The notes beneath the pieces were generated by a model that was given only the letters and a program-made list of their open reading frames with translations, had not been told where the DNA came from and searched no databases. From assembly GCA_028534125.1 (NCBI GenBank), contig CM052828.1, positions 54,994,001-55,058,000 on the forward strand: a DNA stretch of 64,000 bases, given 5' to 3'. This document shows, piece after piece, positions 48,719-64,000 of the stretch. This DNA is from Lama glama (lineage: Eukaryota). Within the stretch, counting starts at the first letter, position 1. Every line of letters begins with the position of its first letter. The translations under genes and the position numbers were made by a program.

Positions 48719-51700
48719 TCATTTTTGACGAACCAGGCTGAAGGACTCTAACAGTGACCCCAATAACTTTTTGGATGAACTCCATAGGTTATAAGAACTT
48801 GAAATCTTGGCCACCATGGGGACTCTGAAGTCTTTCTTCCTTAAAGTTTTGGGAGGAATAGTCCAGCGAATGGTTTTGGGTATAGTCTCCAGTGAGTCTG
48901 CCGGTATACAGGCATAAAAAAATGGCTGGCTTGGTTTTCCTTCAGAAAGGAAGTCGCTGTCCTCTGGAGGAGGTTCTGAGGCTGACTTATGTTCACCTGG
49001 GAAATAATCCGATCTTTCTGACTCAAAATCACGCTCTTTCTTCTTTCTTGTGCGTTTCTCTTTACTCTGTGTATAACTGTAGTCACATTCCCAAGGAATG
49101 TTGTTCTTTCTAAATGAATCGCATTTGGCCTTCTTTCTTTCTTTGCTTTCTGAATGCCTGCGAGGTTTGCCTTGGCTTTTTGCAAGATGTAATTTAATAT
49201 TTGATTCCGTTAAGGGAACTAAGGAGTAATTTTTTCTGCTCTTAGTAGTCTGTGAAAGCTTCTCATCACTGAATGGAATGGAAGATGATATAGACAGATC
49301 TACAGTAGTTAAGGAACTGTTACACGAGTCACGAGATTGCATTTTGGAGGATGACCTATATTTCCTGCTTTTGTGGGAGTCACAAGAAGGTGGTGTCACA
49401 ACTGAGGAATGTTTTCTACGGCCTCTAATATGATGGGAACCTGTATCTTCAGTGTAAAATGGTTTCAGATCAGTTTTGATTTTTTTCTTCCTGTAGAGAT
49501 TTGCCAAAGGCATGCCTTTCTGTAATTCAAGTAGAATATTTTGTGATTCCTGACTTAAACAAGAGTTGGCTTCTAAAAACACATATTCTTCACTGTCATG
49601 TGCATCAAGAGCTGAGCATCCCCCCCAGGTTTCTGAACTCTCAGTATTTGTGTGACTATCAGTAGAATCTTCAAAATTCTGAATTGAATGGGAATCAACC
49701 AAATCATGAGCATTTTCCCAAGTCTTTGAATCAGCAGATTCACATGTATTTGTATCTTGAAACCATACGTGACATTGTTTGTCTTTCCCTGGAGGCACGT
49801 GAGATTTTAAATTTGAAAGAGCCGTAGTGTCTTCCTGCACTGTGCTGTGTTGATCAGGGTCAGAAGAACACACCTGCTGGGGCTCCAAGAATGTATTGAT
49901 CAGTGATGAATTTTCACGGGGACTTTGCTTTTTGAAAGAGATATGTTGTTCTAACTGTCCGGTATCAATGGGAAGACCACCACTTTCTCCACTACTGTCC
50001 ACTTTTTTACATATTGCAACTGTGTGTAACTTAAGAATATGTTTGGGAAGTGTGTTCGGCTTAGGGAACATACTTTTGACTGGAAGCCCCAGGAGAAAAC
50101 GAGTGTATTTGTATCGTAAATCAAGATCTATTTGATGAAGAGATTTTTCCTCAAAAAGTAACAAAATTCTGTTTTCTCGTTTTGGTACTTTGACATCAGA
50201 ATGAATACATGTTGATAAAAGTTTCCTTCTATCCTGAGCACTGGCCATTGTGTAAGATTCTCTTACAATTCTGGGAAAGGTTTTCATTTGAACCTCCAAT
50301 GTTTTCCTAGAAAAGTGTATGAGAAGTTTGTCTTTTTCTTTTACTGGGTAGTTTTGGAGAATACAAGGCAATGGCATTTGTCCAGCAGAAATTAATGAAG
50401 GTGTTCTACTCTCTAGCGCATGTATTCTCTTTAGCTTTGTAATAATCTCCTCACTGCCACTCGAAACATTAACAGTCAGTGTTTTCACACAGCTGACAAG
50501 AGGTGAGTCTTTTTGGTATCTGTGTTTTAGGGTGAGTTTTACAGTATCAATCCCTCTGAGAGACAAAAAGCACGTTTTTCTATGTCTTTGACTGAGCCTC
50601 CAGCTGTTATGTTTCGAAATAGCCGGTTTTGGATAACAGCTGAGCCTTTGGAAGGATTGTTTCCTCATCTCTGGTGTCAAATTCAGATTTATTTCAGGTG
50701 CTTTTGACTCTAAATGATTCGTGAGCTTGTTTTTTCCTTCGCAAGTAAAACTTTCTACAATAGGCTTTGGCTGCACTTTGGAATGTGTTATTGTGGACGT
50801 TGTATCTGCACACCCTGCAGAAGGTGGCGCCTCCCAGCTACCAGGTTTATCGTCTTCCACTTTTTCTAGTATATCAGCATAAATTTTGTCTTGGACCATA
50901 TTTTTCACCTGGGCTTCGAAGACATCTTTAATTGCTTCATAAAGAGGAAGTAAACTTTCTGCTCTTGGACTATCTGCCACTATTTCTATTTCATTACCTT
51001 TAACTTGGGATGCTTCGGGCTCAGTTCCTGGAGGAGTTTTCTGTTGCTGAAGCGTTTGTGTGGCTGTGACCTGTACAGGTTCACGCTGATCTCCATCCTC
51101 AGGTGGTGGGGCATGCTCTGCGGTACCAAACAGCTGAGTTTCACACGGTGGTTCTTCTACCCCCAGCGGGGGAATATTCGTACTGAGGGTACTTTTCATG
51201 TGGGTTTCCACATTTTCGTTTGGATCTTCAGGCATGAATGGACAATCTGTAGGTGTTTGAATGGATTTTGGTGCCTTTTCTTGCTCGATCGTAAGCAAGT
51301 CAGGCTCTTTTACAATGCTTGAGATGTCATGGCCTGGAACAACCCTTTCTTTTGTTTGTGGAGTTAAACTTTGATTTGCTTCACTGCTGAGGTTTGCTTC
51401 TGACTTGGCACTAGGAAGCTTGTTCATTTGTTGCTCATCCACCACGAAGGGCTGAGAATCCTGAGGAACTGCGCTTGTAGAATTCTGGTCGCCTTCTTTT
51501 ACAGTGCTTGAGCTGTCCCTCTTGACAGCTGTACTAGCGTTTGGTGATTTATGCGGAAATTTTGAAAGACAAGTTCTCTTTGCTCTTTCTAAGTTTGTCT
51601 CAGGTTCTACTGTTTCTCTAGTCTGAGATGGACTCATCATGGAAATAGAAAGACTTCTGATAAAAATTCCTGAGGCTTCTTCTCGCCACAAAGATATTTT

Positions 51701-54700
51701 CTTTGATCTGTTAAAGTTATACTCCAATTTCTTTCTGTTGCTTGGAGTACCACGTCCTGTGTTGCCTAGAATCTGTAGAACAGGATGCTTTGGGATTTTC
51801 ATGCTTGAATATTTGGGGCTCAATTCTCTTTTCACATCTGCTATTGTTAATCTGCCTTTCTGACCTCCAAAATTGGAAGAAACTGGAATATCGGCATAAA
51901 ATGAATCCAGCATATGTTTTTGAAACATATTTTGTAGCTGAATGCTTTGTTTTGTGCAAGACACTTCTCGTTCCTTTTTATGTTTTTGTTTCCTTGGGTC
52001 GTGGTTTGCCATATGAGTGACGACCTGAGCCTTGATTTGCGGTTCCTCTGCCTTTAGAGATGCCATGCTCAGGTTTACTGTGTTGCTTGTGTCCATTTTT
52101 ATTTTCTCCTCCTCCAGATTGACGGTGGTGCGTTTGTGCATTTCTATTTTGTCCTCTTCCAGGTGGACGGCTATATTTGTGTCTATTTTTAATATCCCTT
52201 CTTTCATGTCTAATTTTTTTTGCTCCAGATTTATAGTTGTGCTTGTGGCAGTTTCATTTTTTTCCTCCAGATCACCAAACTGAGGTGGAAAGTTCCAGAA
52301 GGAAGAAAGAGACTTCTGAAGCGACTCTGGGTTGCGCTCCTTTTGTTCTGGAACAAACAATGCCTGACTTTTTTGCCCTTTTAGGGCATCAAACTCTGTA
52401 ATATCCATGTGCATTCTTGGTAGTACTTGTGCTCCAGGGTAGACTGTAGTTTGCTTATGCACATCTATTTCTAGCGGTGTCCTCTGCTTTCCATTTTGAA
52501 GTGGAATCTTCAGAGAAAGGCTAGAATCCACCCTGGTCTGCCGCCCACTCCCAGACCGCAGCACCATTTGCTTTTCCGTGACAATTTCTTGTTCTATATT
52601 CGGGGGGGCATTTGACTCTGTGATACTCATTTTCTCAACTGATTCCTTTGCCAGCACTTTGGGAGGGGACGTTTCGCTTATTTTTTCATTATTTTGTCCA
52701 TCTTCCTCTGGTTTATCAAATTTACATGAATCTGCAGATCCTGGAGACGCCTTTGATAAAGTCTCTTGTTGGTGGGCATCTTGCTCTGAAGCAGAAAATC
52801 CTTCTGAACTGACAGGGGTGCCACGCGTGGCACACATTTCCTTGGATATTTTCCTCGGCAGCGAAACTAAGTCCTGAGGACTTATTCTATGGCTCAGGCT
52901 ATTCATTATTTCCGTTTCATTCTTCAGACTTTCAATGTTAGTTAGATCTATCGCGGGGAAGGAAAGAAACGTAGTAAAATGTGCTGTTCTGTATTTTTCT
53001 CGCTGAGCCTCTTGCCCTGTGAAGAAATATTCCAGCCTTTTCCCACCTCTTATGGTACCAAGTCCTGTAAAATAGAGGCCCTCATGCTGTGAATTTAACT
53101 CACTCAGATCTCCTTCAGATTTGACTCGTGGAGGCTCCCTCCTTTGCTGGATGCTGATCATGAAGTTGGAGGTCCACTGTCGCTTGGCCTCTTCTCCTGG
53201 AACCGAGTGTTCAGCGTTCTTAACCAGTTCACTGTCGCCACTAACTGACTCTCTGATTGCTGTTTCCTGGGTGTCTGATGATTCTTGGAGATTTTGCTGT
53301 GGATAAGAGGATCCCGTGATTCCTGGCATATCTTTGTCCATTTTGCTCCCTGAATCTAGATAAAGAGGTGCTGACGGGATAGAAAGGAAAGTCCTTGTCA
53401 GAACCACACCTGGTTCATCTTTACCTTTGTGTACACGCCTCCCTGGCTCTTTAATAACATTCAACACAAATTCCTTTGTACCAAGGACATGTGAAATTGG
53501 GGAAAGTCTTCCCTCTTTGTGATGCATCCTGATCCGCATGTCTACTTTTTTCATGTCATACTTTTTTTCTTTCTCTGACGTGTGTTGTTTTCCAGTTCCT
53601 TTTGAATCTGCTCTCTTCTCTGCATCTGATAATGCTGAAAGCATCAGTGGAAGCAGGGAAGGTCTTTTAATTCCAAGTCTTTCTTCATCTACTTGTGTGC
53701 CTTTATCCAGTTTCAGCTTAATTAGAGGTCTGGAAACATACATTTTTCTTAACAGAGAGGATCTTTTAATTCCAAGCCCTCCTTCATCTACCTGTGTGCC
53801 TTTATCCAATTTCAGCTTAATTCGAGGTCTGGAAACAAGTATTTTTCTTTGCAAAGAGGATCTTTTCATTCCAGGCCCTTCTTCATCTACTTGTGTACCT
53901 TGATCCGATTTCAGCTCAGTAGGAGGTATGGAAACATACATTTTTCTTAGCATCATACTGGGCGGGTTACCTTGACCTTCCTGTTTCTTTGGCTCTATCC
54001 CTCTGATGTTCAGATGCAATTCTGTCCTATGGAGCACATATGAAGGAGGTATTCTCTTGGACTTCAAAGTTATCTCTGTGGTGTGTGTTGGACCCCTTGT
54101 ATCTACCGTTCTTTCCCTGACCCTCTCTTCTTTCTCAGGCATAGGTTGTTCCTCGTTTTGAACGTCTTTCGCGATATCACCACTAATTGACTGTGTACGC
54201 ACTATTTCCCCTGCATTTGATATTCTCGGCAAAACAGACCTTTCAAGTGCTAGCATTTCATCATCTACTTGTACTTCTTTATCCAAGCTGAGGGCAGGGA
54301 GAGATGGTAACCAAGTAGAAGATGTGGTGGGAACCATACCCGGTTCAGCTTTAGTTTCTTGCATCTCCTTTTCTTGATGTTTGGGGAACACGAGGTTTCC
54401 TCTTTCTGCTCCATCCTCTCCCTTGTTCTGGGACATATGTTGTTCTTCCTTTCGTGGACTGACCGCAGTATCACTAGCAATTGGCTCTACATGTACCACT
54501 TCCTCGGAACCTGGTGACTTCTGGAAGTTTACTGGGGGAAAAGAGGATCTTGGTAATATCGGCACGCTCTCTTCCTTGATGCTGGTATTTTCATGAGGGT
54601 GAAGGTGGGCAGGCCTAGAAATACAAGTCTCAGGCAGCGTTAGGTCACCTGGCTCCCGTTTAGCTCCCTGAACCTCTCCCTCTTGCTCTTTAGTTTTCCA

Positions 54701-57700
54701 CTGAAGCTCACTTGGATTGCATGTAAGCAAAACAAGCGATTCCTTTGCTTTCAAACCCGTATTATTGGGGTCCACGATAATATTCATATGCACACTTTCC
54801 TGTCTGTCCTCCTCCTCTTTCTGTAGCATGTGCTCTCTTATCTCTCTTACATCTTTTGCAAGTTCTCCATCAGTTGTTTCAGCATATTCTATTTTCATTG
54901 TGTGTGCTGATTCCTTGGACTGTGATTGTGGGAGAGGCAGTTTTGTAATTCTTATCACATACCCCTCTCCTTCCGCTGCATCGGATTTAAGACATGGTAG
55001 AGTAAGTAAAGAAGTACAAATGTTCTTCAGGTTTGTAACTAGTTCAGTGTCGTTTCTCTGTACCCTTCGCCCTTGCTCTTTAATTTTCCACCACGGTTTT
55101 TTGGTGTCAAGTAGATGTGAAAGCGGTGGCTCCTCTGCCTTCTGATCCAGAGAGAGAGAGACTGGGAGCACTCTGTCTTCAGTATCTGTTTTGAGTCTGT
55201 CTTCCTCTTTCAACATAAGTGACCTCGTATCTGCTTTTTGGCTTGGAATGAATGGATCATAAATCTTCAGTGGTGGAAAACAGGACTGTGTTATTCCTTC
55301 TGCGCCTTCCTCCTGGTTTGTGCTGGGGCCCCGCTGCAGGTCAGATAGAGAAGGTAAGGAAGCCCGGGTTTCCCTCAGAACCACCTCCTCCCCTCGCTCC
55401 TTGACATCCGGAGGCAGCCTGTCTCCACTGAGTAGATGGGTAAGTGCGGACGAGTGGGCTTCTAAAGTTGTTACTTGGGGGGATCGTCTGTCTCTCCCGC
55501 CTTTTGTTGTGACTCTGTCCTTTGCCTCTTTACATGGCGCGTGTCTGTTAGCTTTTATTATGACATTACATGAGCTGATACCCTGACTGGGATCTGCGTA
55601 TCTGACTCCCCCTGTACCTGATGACTCAGGGAGCTGTAACTGGGAAGGAGCGGATCCTGCGTCTGCTTTGGTTCCTGCATCCAGTCTATGGTGAGATGGA
55701 TAAGGCGAGGAAGGAGGAGCTTTTGCTGGAGCCACGTGCGGGTCCCCGCTTCTTCCCTGCTCCTGTTCCACTCTCTTCTTAGTGCTCGACTGTGGTTCCT
55801 TTCTCCTACTCCGGGCACCGGGCTCAGCAACACCGAATACGTGAGGAGGCGATGCTGTCCCTGCCTTGACGTCTGTGCCGTTGGGGCGCGTGGTCAGGGC
55901 TGCTGCTGGCACTCCGGCCTTTTCTTTCGGTGGTGGATGCGGTCTTCCTCCTTTTCTCCGGCTGTCAGCTGACTTTGTAGGTGCCGTCTGCACTGAAGAC
56001 AATGAGTCTTGGAGCTCGAGAGGTGACACGTAATTCCTTATTATTCCTGGTTCACCTTTCTCTTCTTTTATTGTGTCAAACTTCAGATGAGCTGAAGAAG
56101 TGACAAAAGGACAAATTTTGCTCAGAAGCACAACTGTGTGCTTGCTACCGTCCTGCCCCCTTCTCACTTGCTCTTTAATGTTGACTTGCAGTTTCTTCGC
56201 TCTGAGTACATGGAAAAGGGGTGATTTGTTTGCCTTCAAAGCTAAGCCTTTGGGATGCATTAGGTCTCTCTCAAAAATATTTGCTTCATTCTCTTCTCTC
56301 TGTGCCGTGTATTTTGTTCCCTTTGAATCTCTTGAGATACCATTTCCAGGTGACGTCGTATATTTTAATCTCTTTGTGTCTGATGATTCCTTGGGCCATG
56401 AGGATGGAAGGCAGGGTCTCACTACTCCTTGGCTCCCTTCCTTGCCTTCTGCAACTCTGTTTAACTTAAACTGAGGTAAACAAGGTCCTGCCAGAACGTC
56501 ATCTCGTTCACTTGTTCTGTCCTGTACGTGTCCCAGGTTTCCCCTTATGTTTGTCTGCATGTCTCTAATTTGGGGGCCACACCCCCCGGGGGAACTGGGA
56601 AAATGTGGAAGTGGTAGTAATATCTTTGCCTTGGGAGTGCTGCCTTTGCGGTATATTTTATATTTCATGTTTGCTATTTCCCCTCCGTCCTCCCCTCTCT
56701 GGGGCTTGTACTCTTGTACCGTTTTCACATCATCTGAGACATCATCTCCAGTTGAAGGAGCAGGTAGGGACGTACAGGTCAAAACCACACCTGGTCCACC
56801 TTTAATTCTCTGTGTATTTTTCTTTTGCTCTTTGATGTCCAACTGGATTTCCTGTGAAATTGGTGATTTATTTTTCTTCAAAGGTACGACTTTCGCCATT
56901 TTTACTCTCTCTTCTTCTTCCGTATCACCACAGGTAGACTCTTTATATGCTATTTTCCCTGTATCTGATGAGTCCTGGAGCTCTGGTTGTGGAAAGGGGG
57001 ATCTTGTTTTTCTTAGCACGACTGCTTCTTGTTTCCCTCCTGTGTCCACCTCAGAGTAAGGTGGAGAAGACACAGAGAGGCGCGGTCTTCTCTGAATCCC
57101 AACTTGTTCACCCGAATCTTCCTGCATCTTTTCCTCTTTTTCTTTGATGTTCAAGGGCAACTCCTGTGCAGTCGGAGACTGATTCGCCTTCAAAGCTATT
57201 CTTTTGTGAAGCCTTATTTCTTCTTTCATTTCCACTTTATCTTCGGTTTTCTGTGGCAAATATTTTGCTCTTTTTATGCTGCTTAAAATGTCACCCATTG
57301 GCTCCTCACATGTTATCATTGCATCTGATAATTCCTGGAGGGTCAGTGATGGAAAGCAGAGCCCTGTTACTCCTCGCATGTGTGCCTCTTCTTTTAATCC
57401 AGGACCCCATTCTAGGCGGGATGAAGAAGGAATGGAAACATGGGGCTTGTTCAGAACTACATCTAGACCACTTGTATCTCCCTGCATCATTTCCTCTTGT
57501 TCTTTGTTGTTCCACTGTGGTTCTTGTCCACGCGGTGTAAGCTTAAAAAGCTTTTTCTTTCTTCTAAAAGTGGCACATTTGCGGTGCACCATATCCTTCA
57601 TATACACAGTATCTTCTCCACCTTCCTTCTTTTTCTGTGGCAAATGTTGTTTTGATTCTATTATATCATTTAAACTATCCCTACTAATTGACTCTGGAAA

Positions 57701-60700
57701 TGATGTTTTTCTGATATTTGAGGATGCCTGGAACTTCAGTGGCGGAAGGCAGCTCCTTGGTATTCCTGACTTACCTTTTCCTACTTTTATTCTTGAATTC
57801 AAATTAGGATGTGACAGAGATGGTAAGGAAATCAGCACGTCTGTCAGTTTCACACCTGACTTACCTTTACCTGTTTGCACCTTGCTCTCTACTTTTACAG
57901 TGTTCAGCGGCACTGGCCATTCCTCTCCCTCGTGTGTGTGTGACAGTGATGATTTCTTTGCCTTCAAAATAACGTTGGGATCCATTATCCGTTTCATATT
58001 GACTCTTTTTATTCTATCCTTCTTTTTCTGAGATATATGGTGTTTTATTCCCTTTACGACATTTGAGATAATCTCATCAATTATCTTTTTATTCAATTTG
58101 AGGTAAGGTGAAAAAGGGATGAACTCATACGTATTTGTCACAACCAAATCAGGTCTGACCTTTTTATGTTTCATATTTACCATCTTCTCTTTTAGTTCCC
58201 ACTGCAGTTCTGGTCTGTTGCCTGGGGTTCTGTAGTTCGCAGTATTAAACGTATCTGAAGAGACTGATTTCTTAAACATCAAAGTTCTTTCGGGGCATAT
58301 TACGCCTTTCTTAAGTCCTTGTTTTATGTCACTCTTCTGTCTTTCACTCTCAGGCAAAAGAGGCAAATGGACAGAAAGAGAATGTAAAAACAATCCAGGT
58401 AGGCACACCTCTTTTTGTACCTTTTTTTGATATGCTTTGCATAATTGTGCCTTCTCTCTTCGCTTGGAGCTACCATGTGATACTGAATCAATTACCTGTG
58501 CCCCGTCTGATGCTTTCTTTCCTTTTGGAAATGAGACATCCTGATATTTTATATTTTCACTGAATGATTCTGAAGGCAGCATTGTATTTTGTCTTTTTGT
58601 TTGCCTTGGAGGAATCAAGGGCACAGCCCATTCCAGGCCATACTCACTTCCAGGGTTCAGATGAGCTTTAGAAATCAAGTCTGATCCTTTTGTCCTGCTC
58701 GACGTGTTGCCTGCTTCTGATAATGCTTCCTTGGCCGGAGGCACTAACTGCGGCAGGAACCAGGGATCATTCTGAGGGTAGGACCTATGCTCCAGAAAAT
58801 TCTGAGAGGGAACCAACAGGTGCTGCTGTGTTTGTTCCGCACTGGGTAAGTGTTGTCTCTTTTCACTTGTTTGAGTATATCCAACAGTAACATCCATTCC
58901 TTTTAATGCTCCCTTAGCCTGCGGAGTTGAATGTTCACAGTGCATCATATTGGTGTCATCCAGTTTTACTCGCTGCACTGAGGTACTAATGTGCAGTCGA
59001 CCTGCTGGCGAGTGAGACGCAGGCTTTAGAAGAGCCTCGTTCGTACGTTTTTGTTGCTGTAATCCCTTTCCTGTAATTAGCAAACCAGCTCCTTCTGCAC
59101 TTGGGGTGCCATGCATAGTGCTAGCTACTTCTTCCGAAGCTTGCTTTTTACATGGCATCTTACTTTGAAATACATCTCTCAAAGAGGGAGAAGCAAGATT
59201 TGGGCAAATATGTTGTATATATTCTGGTTGCTTTTCTTCTTTTCCTGAAAAAAGCAAGCCAATTCCTTCTGTATCTGAAGCGTGGTACTTTGCACTCTCT
59301 GCCTCCTTTAATGCTTTCTTTACCCTTGGCAATTTAACCTGGAGTCTATCCACCAAAGAATGAGAAGCAGATGGTGGTAGAGCCTTGCATGTACTTTCTT
59401 GTCGATGCTCTTTTCTTCCTCCGGTATGCAAATCAGTTCCTGCCGAGCCTGGAGTTGGAGCCACTGGAAAATATGTTTTGTTTGATGCTTTCTCTACCAT
59501 TGGGCTCAAAACTGTTGAACTCATTCCTTTGGCTGAGATTTCTTTCTTTAGCTTTTCAGTGTGGAGTTGATGCAATATGCAAGAAGACATGGATTCCAGA
59601 ATATTTTCTTTACTTTGTTTAGAACTATTTTGTTGCTCTGCCTTCTGTGTTTTGGAAAAGTTGATTTTCTGTCCATTTGATTCTAATAGAATATCAGTTC
59701 CCTCTGATTTCTCTTTTCTCCATGGATTTACAGTCAAACCTACAGGGATGCTAACGTGTTCTTTCCCTGTTGCATTGGCTGCCTCTTTTACCTGAAGAGG
59801 TTCCCCACTGGGGCAAGATACAGAATCCAGGATGCTTGCAGAAATGCAGTCTGGTTTCATCTCTCCTTTCTGCACTGCAGACATATTTTGCTGGACCTCT
59901 CCATGTGTACAAAGAAATTTATATCGTTTTGAACCTTGTAAGATAGCAGTTTCTTTTACTCCTTCTCTTCCAAATAGATGTGAAGCATGTCTTCTGTCAA
60001 GGTACGCATCTTCCTCAGCAACCTTTCCTGTGTTTTCTGAATGAGGAGTTTCCACAGTGGGGTAGGCGACAGGTTCCAGATGTGTCACTGAAATACTTCC
60101 TCGTTCCTGCCGTTCTTGCTCCTTGTGTGTCTTCTGTGGAGAAGCAGCCAACTCCGTAAGAAACAAAACATGTCCTTTTGGACTTAAGGAGATGTCCATT
60201 TTCCCTGATACCTCTCTCCCCTGTGGAGCTGAAGCTGAACGTCGGACCACATCTGCGTCACCTTCCTTTACTCTCCGTTCAGTGAGGAGTTCATGCTTTG
60301 TATGTGGTCTAATTCTTGAGATGTCAGACGCAGTGCGACTGAGTTCCCTCTTTTGTGAAGGGAGATCGCGGTAAACGTCTCTTTTCAAATTGACTGTGAA
60401 CTTGACACAGTCGGGCTCCTTCTTCACCTGCTGGCTAATCACCAGCTGGTACCTACGTTGTGGGGGAAGGTCTAGTAAAGCAGCTCGGTAGTTCTCCCCT
60501 TGCTCTCTAATGTACTGTTTCAGGGTTTTAATATTTCTTGACGTAGCACTCTTAACAAGGGACTGTGTTTGTCTTCTGTTTGGTGATTTCTCCAGCTTCA
60601 GCTGCGGAGGAATGTGTATCAATTTTTGTGGCCTGCCTTTCTCCCTTCTTACTTCCATAAACTCTTTCATTTGAGATGGAATAGATCCAGAGTCACAGAG

Positions 60701-63700
60701 AGTATTGAGAACTAACTCTGCCTCGGCTCTGCCTTGCTGGAACCTCTTCTTCTGTTTCTCGATGTTAAATCTCATCTTTTTCTCCAACTCTGCCTTTTCC
60801 TCTGTGATATGACCATTCAGATTTCTGTGAGGTGTTCTGTTGTTAAACAGATTATCCCTTACTGTTGTATTGAATGAGAGCTTATCGATCACTAGCTTGG
60901 ATGGTGAAATGTTAGCTTCCTCCGTGGCATGAAATAATGTCTGTCTCACGCTCCCGTTCCATTGCCTCTCATTTGTCTTGTGCTTAAATCTGTGCCTTTT
61001 CTTTCTATGGTTTCCTGTAAGACACCTTGCGGTATTCAGCAACTGTGAAACGAGTAGTCTCTTTGCCTCCAAAGTTACATACTTGGGACTCGCTGTACTT
61101 TTCTTTTCTACAAACTCTAATGCGTAACTCTGGCTTTGGGGTTCAGGTGAATAAAGGCTGGAGAAATCTAAAGGCTTTAAGATGGTTCTTACTAAGTCAC
61201 TTTGATTCCATGTCTTTCTCTGAGAAATAGGACTATCCCATTTCTTCCTAGGATTTCCATTCCAGAGACCACATTGTATGGAGCCAGTCTCTGATTTCCT
61301 AGCTTCTGGAAATGGAGTCTTTAGACCTACCATGTATTTTATTCTCTCTTGAGCATGAAGACTTTTCTTCAGTGTTTGTACTTGAATAAAATTCATGACA
61401 TTCCTAGAAACAGGCTCCAAAATAGATTCTCTAACATGTTTTTCTTGCCTCATATTTTGCACTGCGCAAGACGAACTCCAAGTGCTTCTGGCTTCTGAAC
61501 TATTCAGTTTAGATTCTGATTTGCAGGAGCCAAGATTTTTCAGATGGTAGGAAGTGAAATGGAAGTGTTGGCTCCAGCGTGGAACTGAGTCTGCTAACAC
61601 TTCTGGGATGTCTTTCTCTGCCTTTGCACGCTGCACAGTCATCTTCACTGCGTTGCTGGACTGGTTTTGTGTATCAGTCAGATTGGCCTCCCATGCCTCT
61701 CGGTCACACGGTGATTTCTCTGGCTCTGGATGGGTGCGGGTGTGTATTTGAACTCTTGGTTGATCTGTCTCTGGTTTTGGTGTGCCATCCATTTCAATAT
61801 CTAATTTGTTATATGTTGAAACCGGTGTGGGAGATGAAAATGCATCAGCTGTACTTTGATTTTGTTGCATGTTGTTTATCACAGATTTTAAATTGCATTC
61901 CTGTTCGTTTCTACTGTATAGATTACCGTGCTCAGTGATATTAAGCACCTGTGAACAAAGAGGTTTCGTTGCCTTCACGGTTACACATTTGGGACCCAAA
62001 AGATCTTTCCTTTCCAGATATTTTAATGCCCTTTTATGCCTTTTAGACTCAGCTAAGACAGACAGCATGGATATTATTAGCGAATCTCTTTGCAACTCTT
62101 TGTGTTTCTTGGCAACACGACCACCTGCTTTCCTTTTGGCGCTTTTATCACATGGATCTCCAAGCACTGACATTCCTGACTTGGGAGGTGGGATATTTTG
62201 ATCGGCTGTGTATTTTATTCCTTTTTGAGTTTTTATGTCTCCCTCTTCTCCTTCACACGGTAGGGAAACTGCACTGGAAACATCTGGCTTCTTTGTGGGG
62301 CTCCCAGCAGATGGACTACAATACTCTGCCTCCCCAGTGAAAAGACCATCAAATCTTGCTCGCCTGCTTTTCCGACATGCTGTCTTCTCACTCAGTCTAT
62401 GGAGTATGTCTTTTTGTGGTGGGACAGTCTTTGTCAGCTTCTCAGTTGGAAATGGAATTATCAGAGGAGAACAGAGAGACTCCAATATATTTTCTGAAGC
62501 CAGTATTTTTTGCTGCCCATCTTGCTCTGTGATAAGCATAATTTGATCTTTTCTACTTCCTGTCCTATTCAGGGGTCGAAGACCTGCTTCGAATAAAACT
62601 TCGTTGCCCTCTTTTTCTTTTTCCTGCTGCCATCTTGATTCTGGTGTGTCGCTTGAGGTGCTCCGTTTATTAGAGGAATATTTACACAGTCTTTTCCCTT
62701 CCTCTTGCTTTAGCTGTAAAAACGTGCTTTTTTCCCTAAATGGGCCTTTCTCTGCTTTCAGTTTTTCATGTGTTTTGATGGCAGGTGAAACAGGTGTAAG
62801 TGAAAACAAGGCATTCATAAATATATTTGACATACTTTGAGGTATTTCTTTGGCCACATCATCCAAGGTGTGGACCTGTTCCTTTCCACGGCTCAGGGCA
62901 CCAGACCTAGTGATGTTAATTGTCTTTAAAACCGGTGCCATCTGTGCTTTCTCAGTCCCAGACTCAGGGATTTGTGCTGCGTTTCTCCACCCTTTGATTT
63001 TAGATGAAGCTGGCCGGGAGCAACCAAAAGACTGTAGGCTTCTCACTTGTGAACCCGTCTGTAACCTCATCTTTCCCTCTGGCACAGAACTAGCAAGTTC
63101 CTTCCGAGGGCCTCTTCCAGATGGAAAGCCACTCTGTGCTATAACAATTAAAGATTCACTGATTGATTTCTCTGTCACTGGGGATGAAATCTTTAAACTC
63201 CCTGTATCTTTTAAGCCTCTCTGGGTTTTTGTTCTTTTTGGTAGCTTCTGAAATGGCAGTAAATTCAAAACAGAGCAGGAAACAGAATGCGACACATTTT
63301 GCATGAAACGCGCATGTTGCTGCAGCTCCTGAGCTATGGTAAGTGACTCTGGGGTTATTTTCCTTGCTGAATTCTTCCGTTCTAGGTCTGATTTCACAAA
63401 GTGAGGCTCCTCCTTTTTATGAGCATGAACAGTGAAGTGTTGAGAATTCCGTGGGGCTGCTTCTCCGCCGTAGTCTTTGACTTCCTCCCCGACCTTTGCA
63501 GCCCAGACCCTCTTCTCCCTGGAATGGGCCCCCCAGGCTCCCTCTCCGCCTGGTGACTGCCCTCGCTCTTGCAGCTCATGACTGAATTTCCTCTTCCATG
63601 GCCTCCCCGTCTCTATTTTTATTCTATTATGCTCTTCCACGTCAAGTGAAACAGGCATGGAGGAGGAAATGGCATTGAGGATGACATCTGCCACAGACTG

Positions 63701-64000
63701 ACCCTGTCTTGTCATGGTTTTGAAGTTGCATTCCCATTGCCTCCTGTGGCTTGGGGCACCACCTTTGCTGGAGTTAAAGGTCTGGGAAATTGGTGCCTTC
63801 TTTGCCTTCAAAGTGACACATTTGGGACTCATTTTATTTCTCTTGCCTGTAAGTTTTACGTTGTTTTGCTTTCTTTTCGACACAGCTGAAACAAGTGTGG
63901 ATATATCCAAAAACTCCAGAGTTGTTGCTGGTAATTCTTGGGCTAGTCCTTCCTTTTCCTCTGCGGTGAGGTTTTCCAGGATCCCAGAGTATTTTATGTG
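48719..64000 (-). CDS. CCDC168: CCDC168, 3' part of the giant terminal coding exon (5' partial; 5093 codons + TGA)
   Basis: Uninterrupted 15.3-kb ORF. The frame stays open from 63910 to the window end ([30 protein letters not shown]), so the listed TTG start is not the real start. K/S/E-rich with C-terminal [24 protein letters not shown]. Position and orientation match the known TPP2-METTL21C-CCDC168 synteny. Confidence 0.93.
   Translation of the reverse strand, partial: [5093 protein letters not shown]
53655..53952 (-). repeat. In-frame tandem repeat, 3 x 99 nt (33 aa), inside CCDC168
   Basis: The g(a/g)tctttt(a/c)attcca motif recurs at 53661, 53760 and 53859. Protein unit is approximately [33 protein letters not shown]. 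Confidence 0.95.

Follow-up and report, generated by a model that had tools for sequence, protein, structure and literature searches.

A preliminary description of a 64,000-nucleotide stretch of the Lama glama genome (this whole stretch is the window referred to below) placed about 13 degenerate repeats of 100-140 aa in the middle of CCDC168 and read them as the product of serial duplication inside one exon, giving a multivalent scaffold rather than a coiled coil. What the repeated unit is, how far it extends and what a protein built from it might use it for are the questions considered here.

Results

The repeats lie in the giant last exon of CCDC168

The minus-strand frame that holds the array (5,093 aa in window 48719-64000) is open at its 5' side and extends 6.4 kb past the window edge, to a total of 7,216 open codons; three small exons complete the gene. 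Across the array region it shares 93% identity with Camelus and 45% with human CCDC168 (7,081 aa), as befits an orthologue, and those of the 77 similarity search matches for which names were available are CCDC168 or unnamed predictions. The neighbouring METTL21C was found as well, with the methyltransferase part (PF10294) of a fused sheep prediction aligning at window 21155-13520 on the minus strand. Several database orthologues (bats, pangolin, bison) are split or partial, possibly through assembly faults or real truncations.

Each of the three proteins scanned has a single hydrophobic segment (one 19-aa window above 1.8, at 2.6-3.1), located at the N-terminus of CCDC168 with acidic residues before it and lysines after it. 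By this one segment, CCDC168 is predicted to be a single-pass membrane protein, and the flanking charges would place its C-terminal side in the cytosol. CCDC168 is reported to be specific to early spermatids in humans and to be a candidate gene for azoospermia (PMC9933954), and it had no mouse knockout as of 2020 (PMC7436996). Mouse Gm8251, a name also found on a hamster CCDC168 record, is termed a putative E1-class ubiquitin ligase in PMC12001970, a reading that none of the Pfam scans of the CCDC168 exons supports. Six RNA sequencing runs contain 0.08-0.31 of the sampled words, which we do not count as expression evidence.

Fourteen degenerate units are arranged in tandem

The array proved to be tandem, as first described, with 14 units (hereafter A units) of 81-187 aa (median 124) in place of the count and lengths given originally (Table 1). 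All eight motifs looked up from the preliminary description lie in one minus-strand frame and where it had placed them, at 57982, 57208, 56257, 54772, 54076, 53503, 53416 and 53290. When every unit was scored against a profile of the other 13, all 14 reached 29.6-84.0 bits, and not one of 200 shuffles per unit equaled the real score (highest shuffle, 11.0 bits). Reversed units scored -1.7 to 4.2 bits, and 15 control chunks lying outside the array scored between -1.4 and 6.3 bits. Thus, the degenerate repeats are real. They are also strongly diverged, with a mean pairwise identity of 24% (14-35%) among the 12 units of one alignment and no invariant or nearly invariant column in the paralogue alignment. 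Self-BLAST of the whole frame gave no off-diagonal rows and the frame had to be chunked, after which the 5,093 aa yielded 105 off-diagonal matches at E<=0.01 versus none in any of 10 locally shuffled copies. At the DNA level, traces of duplication persist as an uncontrolled count of 25 off-diagonal BLASTN matches of 57-85% identity.

Some units bear later changes. At unit 5, camelids lack most of the second half together with the next unit present in other orders, and the best-match order skips there from reference unit 17 to 19. The homologue of unit 12 is the unit re-expanded in ruminants and pig, and the lengthening of unit 13 is due to a young threefold repeat of 99 bases (~53952-53654, 84% identity) common to Camelus.

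Table 1. Features of the CCDC168 exon in the window, listed in the direction of translation
Feature	Window position	Strand	Evidence
3' part of the giant last coding exon, CCDC168 (5,093 codons + stop)	48719..64000	-	open frame; 93% identity to Camelus CCDC168 over array
Last copies of the alternating ~290-aa A/B repeat	60494..63847	-	A at 63832, 62968, 61996, 61090, 60811; B at 63466, 62653, 62266, 61600
Decayed B-like remnants between ~290-aa repeats and array	59330..60469	-	14.1 and 34.5 bits
B module, partial, directly before array	58322..58621	-	42.3 bits, model positions 69-170 of 177
Tandem array, 14 A units	53201..58315	-	leave-one-out profiles; A/B profile map
A unit 1, 106 aa, C-terminal part short	57998..58315	-	leave-one-out 32.3 bits; Pfam 28.7 bits
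A unit 2, 132 aa	57602..57997	-	leave-one-out 83.3 bits; Pfam 30.6
A unit 3, 125 aa	57227..57601	-	leave-one-out 84.0 bits; Pfam 31.4
A unit 4, 104 aa	56915..57226	-	leave-one-out 77.5 bits; Pfam 51.6
A unit 5, 81 aa	56672..56914	-	leave-one-out 29.6 bits; Pfam 14.2, below cut-off
A unit 6, 133 aa	56273..56671	-	leave-one-out 32.8 bits; Pfam no match
A unit 7, 123 aa	55904..56272	-	leave-one-out 77.3 bits; Pfam 137.6
A unit 8, 135 aa	55499..55903	-	leave-one-out 32.3 bits; Pfam 45.3, model positions 139-203
A unit 9, 105 aa	55184..55498	-	leave-one-out 39.1 bits; Pfam 18, below cut-off
A unit 10, 132 aa	54788..55183	-	leave-one-out 67.7 bits; Pfam 76.8
A unit 11, 129 aa	54401..54787	-	leave-one-out 72.6 bits; Pfam 34.8
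A unit 12, 100 aa, without first third	54101..54400	-	leave-one-out 56.2 bits; Pfam 20.4, below cut-off
A unit 13, 187 aa	53540..54100	-	leave-one-out 67.3 bits; DNA self-match
A unit 14, 113 aa	53201..53539	-	leave-one-out 80.3 bits; Pfam 35.5
B module directly after array	52682..53194	-	101.4 bits, model positions 5-169
B-A-B remnant after array (B 52252-51830, A 51820-51485, B 51487-51011)	51011..52252	-	63.5, 58.2, 70.7 bits
Non-repeat C-terminal block, most conserved region measured	49841..50560	-	72-78% identity between orders; weak SPATA31-motif resemblance

The A unit is one half of a two-module repeat

The coordinates given originally delimit the tandem array correctly, but about 13 more A copies lie beyond it; copies per protein number about 28. 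The A unit is one half of a ~290-aa two-module repeat (B-A) that tiles the N-terminal half of CCDC168 and continues outside the window as far as the equivalent of position ~69310. Of the nine stretches that separate N-terminal A units, eight score 83-153 bits in leave-one-out profiles and the ninth 17, with shuffles at no more than 7.9. About 11 B-A pairs precede the array, where the module order becomes B-[A]x14-B, and B matches occur on both flanks of the array and nowhere inside it. Together, the profiles of A and B account for 5,281 of the 7,216 aa (~73%) and match the reversed frame nowhere. Serial duplication within the exon is supported by an array embedded in one 7,216-codon open frame, but its extent had been understated. 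In a tree of 26 A units, which has no outgroup and a bootstrap that had not settled (0.98), a branch at 100/100 separates the 14 tandem units from all the others (none of 500 label shuffles gave as low a value), which points to one origin of the array. The A unit of the B-A-B remnant after the array groups with the dispersed class.

Pfam covers the array in part

The model PF15804 (CCDC168_N), presumably described in the Pfam text as a repeat with several copies per protein, matches this same array, but mid-protein rather than N-terminally as its name implies. It finds eight stretches in window 52001-59500 (467.7 bits) and, genome-wide, six places over its cut-off, all in CCDC168. On single array units, 9 of 14 exceed the 27-bit cut-off and 13 of 14 have E<0.1, as compared with none of the 11 other A units and none of the 11 B modules over the cut-off; the exon's first 3,120 aa yield no match. 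Its 204 positions amount to ~1.6 units, a complete unit and the opening two thirds of the following one, and its end-to-end fit (model positions 2-203) accordingly spans unit 7 and the first two thirds of unit 8 (window 55697-56302). Judged by these profile comparisons, the A unit as part of a two-module repeat, and the B module, are missed by Pfam. The full Pfam coverage that the preliminary description named as grounds for refutation exists in part.

An A profile of 23 units run against 1.84 billion representatives gave 48 matches, 8 of them already-known placental CCDC168 proteins and 40 new, with 38 of the new ones aligning to ass CCDC168. Looking up names for 29 of the 40 gave 20 named proteins, 19 from placental mammals and one from Artemia. 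The Artemia protein is the weakest match (E 4e-4), does not align to CCDC168 and was taken as chance. No marsupial or monotreme name occurs among these matches, which are to annotated proteins only. One 313-aa record (P0112) contains a 61-bit A unit and has no BLAST match to the ass protein. The B profile, in a weak search, returned six proteins of 301-2,000 aa, five named CCDC168 or CCDC168-like and one unnamed with PF15804. No published description of the CCDC168 repeat was found in the literature searched, and two supplementary files of PMC10511089 gave 0 hits; subscription journals, Pfam/InterPro/UniProt texts and bioRxiv supplements (e.g. PhyRepID) may contain one.

The units have no confident fold and the database names are probably wrong

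AlphaFold returned no confident fold for single or double units: two units with 20 homologous rows gave pLDDT 43.8 and pTM 0.13, and one dispersed unit with 22 paralogues gave pLDDT 62 and pTM 0.25, values that alignments this shallow (21-23 rows) depress by themselves. A five-unit homologue in the Atlas has a pTM of 0.12, and Atlas look-alikes score at most 0.80, the level reached by shuffled proteins. Within the limits of such alignments, a compact fold per unit, whether solenoid or beads-on-a-string, was not found. The dispersed-class unit does have predicted helices (pLDDT 70-77, residues 21-50), which could be segments that fold upon binding. Neither A nor B has a PDB sequence match at E<=1, FoldIndex is -0.04, and proline and aromatic residues make up 7.8% and 3.3%, respectively. 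Relative to base-shuffled DNA, the composition is richer in E, K and P and poorer in C, W, Y and R.

The doubt first raised about a coiled coil was borne out by a simple home-made test, which found 39 heptad-like windows in 7,216 aa versus 10-56 in 20 shuffles; the longest proline-free run in the array is 53 aa. A relaxed leucine-rich repeat core (LxxLxLxxNxL, ~24-aa period) has 0 matches in the human and camelid proteins, and Pfam scans of the exon list no leucine-rich repeat family. Both database names, coiled coil and leucine-rich repeat, are therefore likely to be wrong.

The array is old, weakly conserved and kept open

Units map one-to-one across placental orders, with whole or part units gained or lost later. 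The best matches of 13 other proteins to the 28 ass units run in order, sengi included. Among 64 proteins of at least 6,000 aa, many of them close relatives, 47 have 13-16 A matches in the B-free stretch and 30 have exactly 14, and total length is ~6,000-8,000 aa in most. In most orders the array has remained close to 14 units, a constancy not required of pure filler.

At single residues, constraint is weak. Camelid-ass identity is 57% in the array versus 64-76% in the other regions, and in five of six species pairs the array ranks lowest or shares the lowest rank, the C-terminal end being lower between human and mangabey. Units are no better conserved among orthologues than the sequence outside them (mean identity 0.551 over 2,993 positions versus 0.560 over 2,125, with 0.556 expected from residue type), and residues matching strong consensus columns gain +0.017 as compared with +0.014 for weak columns. 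Set against assumed neutral distances, divergence of the array appears near neutral. Drift without selection would put ~17-25 stops per lineage into the 1,705 array codons at distances of 0.2-0.35, and the frame has been kept open despite this expectation. Substitutions in the array were slightly more conservative than in a neutral simulation in three of four pairs (mean BLOSUM -0.29 to -0.31 versus -0.42 to -0.52; the seal pair gave no alignment for the array), and thus some chemical constraint exists.

Lineage expansions amplify fragments rather than whole units (33 aa in camelids, ~58 aa in ruminants and pig); a putative extra duplication is present in P0001. In-frame losses include 106 aa in apes, seen here and in bioRxiv 10.1101/692749, 830 aa in human versus ass, and part of the array in Myotis (rows P0070 and P0071), with the horseshoe bat intact.

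Discussion

On balance we favor the reading that the array consists of 14 decayed tandem A copies, amplified from an older B-A repeat before the placental split, and that it probably serves as a disordered spacer or bulk in the presumed cytosolic tail of a membrane-anchored spermatid protein. The A half of the ~290-aa repeat would have been amplified locally, the direction being from B-A repeat to A-only array, with copying by unequal crossing-over or slippage inside the exon. The product would be long and flexible, a spacer or bulk and not a string of conserved binding domains, and selection may act less on single residues than on the open frame, the length and the charged, low-aromatic composition.

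The multivalent scaffold originally suggested would instead have a short motif in each unit (the basic 'PK..TLKAKK.PIS..L' or the amphipathic helix that follows) bind the same partner repeatedly, be it membrane, microtubule, actin or a hub protein, gaining strength by number and not by fit. The ~28 A copies per protein and the steady ~14 in the array would suit it, as would the helices predicted in the first half of a unit, the slight conservative bias of substitutions and three columns (K9, L30 and S93) at 0.67-0.70 orthologue identity; moreover, low-affinity repeated motifs can drift fast. However, neither units over spacers nor strong over weak columns show excess conservation, paralogues share no near-invariant column, the array is the least conserved region, and lineages expanded fragments instead of whole units. 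As a conserved binding module with a predicted fold, the scaffold is not supported, and overall we regard it as unlikely, though the most credible of the alternatives.

Near-neutral divergence, highest conservation at the two ends and tolerance of large in-frame losses would also be expected if the array were mostly a fossil of tolerated duplications, with only the N-terminal anchor and C-terminal block mattering and the repeats persisting because any change that breaks the frame would remove the C-terminus. Yet length and array count are steady in most of the 64 long proteins, and if deletions are tolerated, an exon of 21 kb without use should have grown shorter, which makes this account improbable. 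A small folded domain on a string, as in Ig or spectrin arrays, that predictors had missed is hardly credible, since its domain-sized length of ~125 aa and ordered motif set are outweighed by pTM values of 0.12-0.25, high proline and low aromatic content, units 1, 5 and 12 cut at arbitrary points, free indels and the lack of a PDB relative.

With the array taken as decayed spacer copies, the repeat map reveals no new mechanism by itself but gives CCDC168 an anatomy of anchor, ~11 B-A repeats, 14 A repeats and conserved C-terminal block. PF15804 should be re-cut into two families, one for the 125-aa A unit and a new one for the 175-aa B module. CCDC168 ranks among the longest human proteins and is present in many exome gene lists; missense variants in its array deserve little weight, and frame-breaking variants and those at the two ends more.

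Two groups of known proteins invite comparison. SPATA31/FAM75/FAM205 (PF14650, PF15371) likewise have, by consensus, a hydrophobic segment at the N-terminus with a long low-complexity tail behind it, and SPATA31 genes end in one long exon after three small ones, as found for CCDC168. CCDC168 is about five times longer. They are testis proteins by name, and FAM205A is called acrosomal (PMC13423385). The C-terminal block of CCDC168 weakly resembles SPATA31 motifs (6 of 120 proteins at E<0.001 versus 0 of 120 reversed; profile-profile score with the repeated motif 30.5, E 0.009, with one of nine column-shuffled nulls reaching 29.0 and seven regions tried). Descent of the A unit from that motif was rejected (0 of 120; profile-profile 10.3, within the null of 7-12), and the B module gave 2 of 120 against 5 matches on reversed sequences. 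Pfam scans of exon 1 and of the giant exon list neither PF14650 nor PF15371, and the PF14650 genome search lists no place in CCDC168. It would be a long shot, slightly more so than the fossil account, that CCDC168 is a placental invention in which the last exon of a SPATA31-like membrane-anchored ancestor grew to 21 kb by two nested amplifications of a two-module repeat not described before. The result would be a disordered tether or brush of 7,000 residues on a spermatid membrane, and its length, still altered by unit gain and loss in single lineages, would set distance or spacing in sperm-head shaping.

The second group, Ki-67 (~122-aa repeats in one large exon), KNL1 with its MELT repeats, AHNAK and BRCA2 exon 11, comprises giant disordered proteins made by repeat amplification inside an exon. 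The A profile shows no sequence relation to them among the 1.84 billion representatives, and they keep a short constrained motif, whereas none stands out in the CCDC168 units. What CCDC168 shares with them is the architecture itself: long degenerate tandem units in one very large exon, predicted disorder and lineage-specific gain and loss of units.

CCDC168 contains a tandem array of 14 repeat units

The repeat array lies within a single minus-strand reading frame, which remains uninterrupted over 7,216 codons once genome sequence beyond the window is included; together with the neighboring DNA, it yields a gene model of three small exons and one exon of ~21.6 kb. The array region is 93% identical to camel CCDC168 and 45% identical to human CCDC168, and the protein carrying it is identified by sequence as CCDC168. 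A single AATAAA past the stop codon suggests a very short 3' untranslated region, and a METTL21C-like gene lies downstream inside the window.

Features of the CCDC168 region, in window positions
Feature	Position	Strand	Remarks
CCDC168 reading frame	48719-64000	minus	contains the repeat array
Tandem array of A units	58315-53201	minus	14 units
Local repeat	59053-59440	 	frame residues 1521-1649; 58-aa offset, 32-43% identity
Region with second copy in P0001	53290-53850	 	~190 aa, near-identical
C-terminal block	49841-50560	 	strongest conservation within the protein
AATAAA	48664	minus	~55 bases past the CCDC168 stop codon
METTL21C-like methyltransferase gene	21155-13520	minus	four exons; match to the methyltransferase (PF10294) part of a fused sheep prediction

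A preliminary description had proposed ~13 degenerate repeats forming a multivalent scaffold; its observations were borne out, while its interpretation was borne out only in part. All eight motifs that we looked up were found at the places it had assigned to them, and self-BLAST of frame chunks produced 105 off-diagonal matches, versus none in 10 shuffles. An iterated profile started from one unit recovered tandem units at window-frame residues 1896-3600, from which 14 units (hereafter A units; 81-187 aa, median 124) were delimited by hand. When each unit was left out in turn and compared with a profile of the remaining 13, the scores were 29.6-84.0 bits, versus a maximum of 11.0 bits among 200 shuffles per unit and -1.4 to 6.3 bits for 15 control chunks. 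Mutual identity of the array units is ~24%, and DNA self-comparison of the array gave 25 matches at 57-85% identity. The origin of the array by duplication within the exon is established far more firmly than any functional reading. P0001, a database protein 99% identical to the window, carries an extra ~190-aa copy that takes in most of unit 14 together with the last part of unit 13, and this copy is absent from the window and from two camel proteins and is either an allele or an assembly fault.

The array is embedded in a two-module repeat

Using a profile seeded with 12 camelid units and trained on 16 non-camelid orthologues, we found the A unit ~28 times in camelid CCDC168, between residues ~500 and ~6,500. 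The N-terminal copies are spaced ~290 aa apart, and their spacers constitute a second repeat of ~175 aa (B): in leave-one-out searches, eight of nine spacers scored 83-153 bits and the ninth 17, whereas shuffles reached at most 7.9. From N to C terminus, the protein consists of an anchor, a unique stretch, ~11 B-A pairs, a decayed zone, B-[A]x14-B, B-A-B, and ~760 unique residues. Mapped with both profiles, the two modules account for 5,281 of 7,216 residues, with no matches to either in the reversed frame; the mapping profiles contain camelid rows, so no camelid unit was withheld from this scoring. The median count in 64 proteins of at least 6,000 aa is 26 A and 17 B matches. The decayed zone preceding the array also contains a separate local repeat. 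Relative to the ass protein (P0018), human CCDC168 (P0051) lacks ~830 aa and 195 aa of N-terminal repeats, the former gap being close to a whole multiple of the ~290-aa repeat.

The Pfam family PF15804 (CCDC168_N) matches the array in eight stretches. Its end-to-end fit comprises unit 7 and two thirds of unit 8, so its 204 positions correspond to ~1.6 units. When units were scanned singly, 9/14 exceeded the cut-off and 13/14 matched at E<0.1, with no match for unit 6; therefore, the array is largely known to Pfam. In contrast, neither the non-array A units (0/11 above cut-off) nor the B modules (0/11) were recovered, and a scan of the first 3,120 aa gave no Pfam match. Full coverage by an existing Pfam model, which the preliminary description had considered, holds in part for the array and not for the remaining modules. 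The Pfam text for PF15804 reportedly mentions multiple copies. The array is an already partly catalogued repeat of a known kind; we did not find the nested two-module architecture in Pfam or in the papers retrieved by searching a limited literature library.

History of the array

In an unrooted tree of 26 units, each represented by the majority sequence of its orthologues (two short units omitted, bootstrap incompletely settled), the 14 tandem units form one side of a 100/100 branch. Since B occurs on both flanks of the array and nowhere within it, the array would most simply have arisen from a single B-A repeat whose A half was amplified by itself, a direction of change that we infer. For units of 13 other proteins, one of them from a sengi, the best-matching unit of the ass protein is the one at the equivalent position, in most cases by a wide margin; therefore, the array is older than the split of the sampled placental orders. 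In 47/64 long proteins, the B-free stretch contains 13-16 A matches (range 1-23, the lowest counts coming from partial or divergent records).

Individual lineages exhibit further changes. Short matches to one unit number 10 in ibex and six in pig, the sengi has ~9 additional copies whose nearest units are 15-16, and camelids have a threefold 33-aa repeat in the array. Ruminants and pig (P0011, P0020, and relatives) share one array unit at which additional ~58-aa copies occur, and these copies are lacking in hippo, whales, and camelids; the pattern would fit two separate uses of one hot spot or a single event with losses. An ape-specific loss of 106 aa, reported in bioRxiv 10.1101/692749, maps to human residue 2701, N-terminal to the array. 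No named profile-search match outside placental mammals was upheld after inspection. P0112, an unnamed database protein of 313 aa, contains a single A unit of the dispersed type (61 bits) and gave no BLAST match to the ass protein; it might be a fragment of a highly divergent orthologue.

Constraint and possible function

CCDC168 has been reported as early-spermatid-specific (PMC9933954) and as specific to the male reproductive tract, with no mouse model as of 2020 (PMC7436996), and Gm8251 RNA is listed among the mouse spermatid RNAs bound by NSUN7 (PMC12001970). A hamster CCDC168 record carries the name Gm8251.

CCDC168 is probably anchored in a membrane and largely unfolded; the stretch from its anchor to the conserved C-terminal block would owe length and charged bulk to the array. 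Its one hydrophobic segment, encoded in the first small exon, is preceded by acidic residues and followed by lysines, which suggests a cytosolic location for the long tail. Camelid-ass identity is 57% in the array, 64% in the dispersed repeats, 72% at the N-terminus, and 76% in the C-terminal block, and the array has the lowest between-order conservation of all regions compared. We consider it rather unlikely that the array is a multivalent low-affinity scaffold; in a 23-protein alignment, mean pairwise identity was 0.551 at unit positions and 0.560 outside units (residue-type expectation 0.556), and the gain for residues matching strong consensus columns was 0.017, versus 0.014 for weak columns. 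Still less probable is a tolerated fossil. Array identity between human and mangabey is 0.891, compared to 0.894 simulated without selection at a neutral distance which we take to be 0.06, but in three of four pairs the observed substitutions were slightly more conservative than those of the neutral simulation, which counts against pure neutrality. The frame is clearly maintained, because drift alone would bring 17-25 stops per lineage into the array at distances of 0.2-0.35. A missed folded domain is highly improbable: predictions gave pLDDT 43.8, pTM 0.13, and two short helices for two array units (20 homologous rows), pLDDT 62, pTM 0.25, and three or four helices that do not pack into a compact fold for one dispersed unit (22 paralogues), and pTM 0.12 for the Atlas model of a five-unit homologue, and no PDB relatives of A or B were found.

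Coiled coil and leucine-rich repeat both failed simple tests as identities of CCDC168: heptads are not in excess, in agreement with the preliminary description, and no leucine-rich repeat core pattern was found. Overall, the repeat map is useful in laying out the anatomy of a giant protein that has gone unstudied, and it reveals no new mechanism.

Comparison with SPATA31

A SPATA31 gene of the genome that contains the window shares 99% identity with an alpaca record. The A and B repeats were ruled out as SPATA31 relatives, being unrelated by sequence tests. Only the C-terminal block shows a weak and uncertain likeness to SPATA31: 6/120 proteins matched, versus 0 when reversed, and the profile-profile comparison gave an E of 0.009, a score almost equalled by one of the nulls. 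Its three best alignments, also weakly scored, all fall on the SPATA31 repeated motif. In layout, SPATA31-family proteins are similar to CCDC168.
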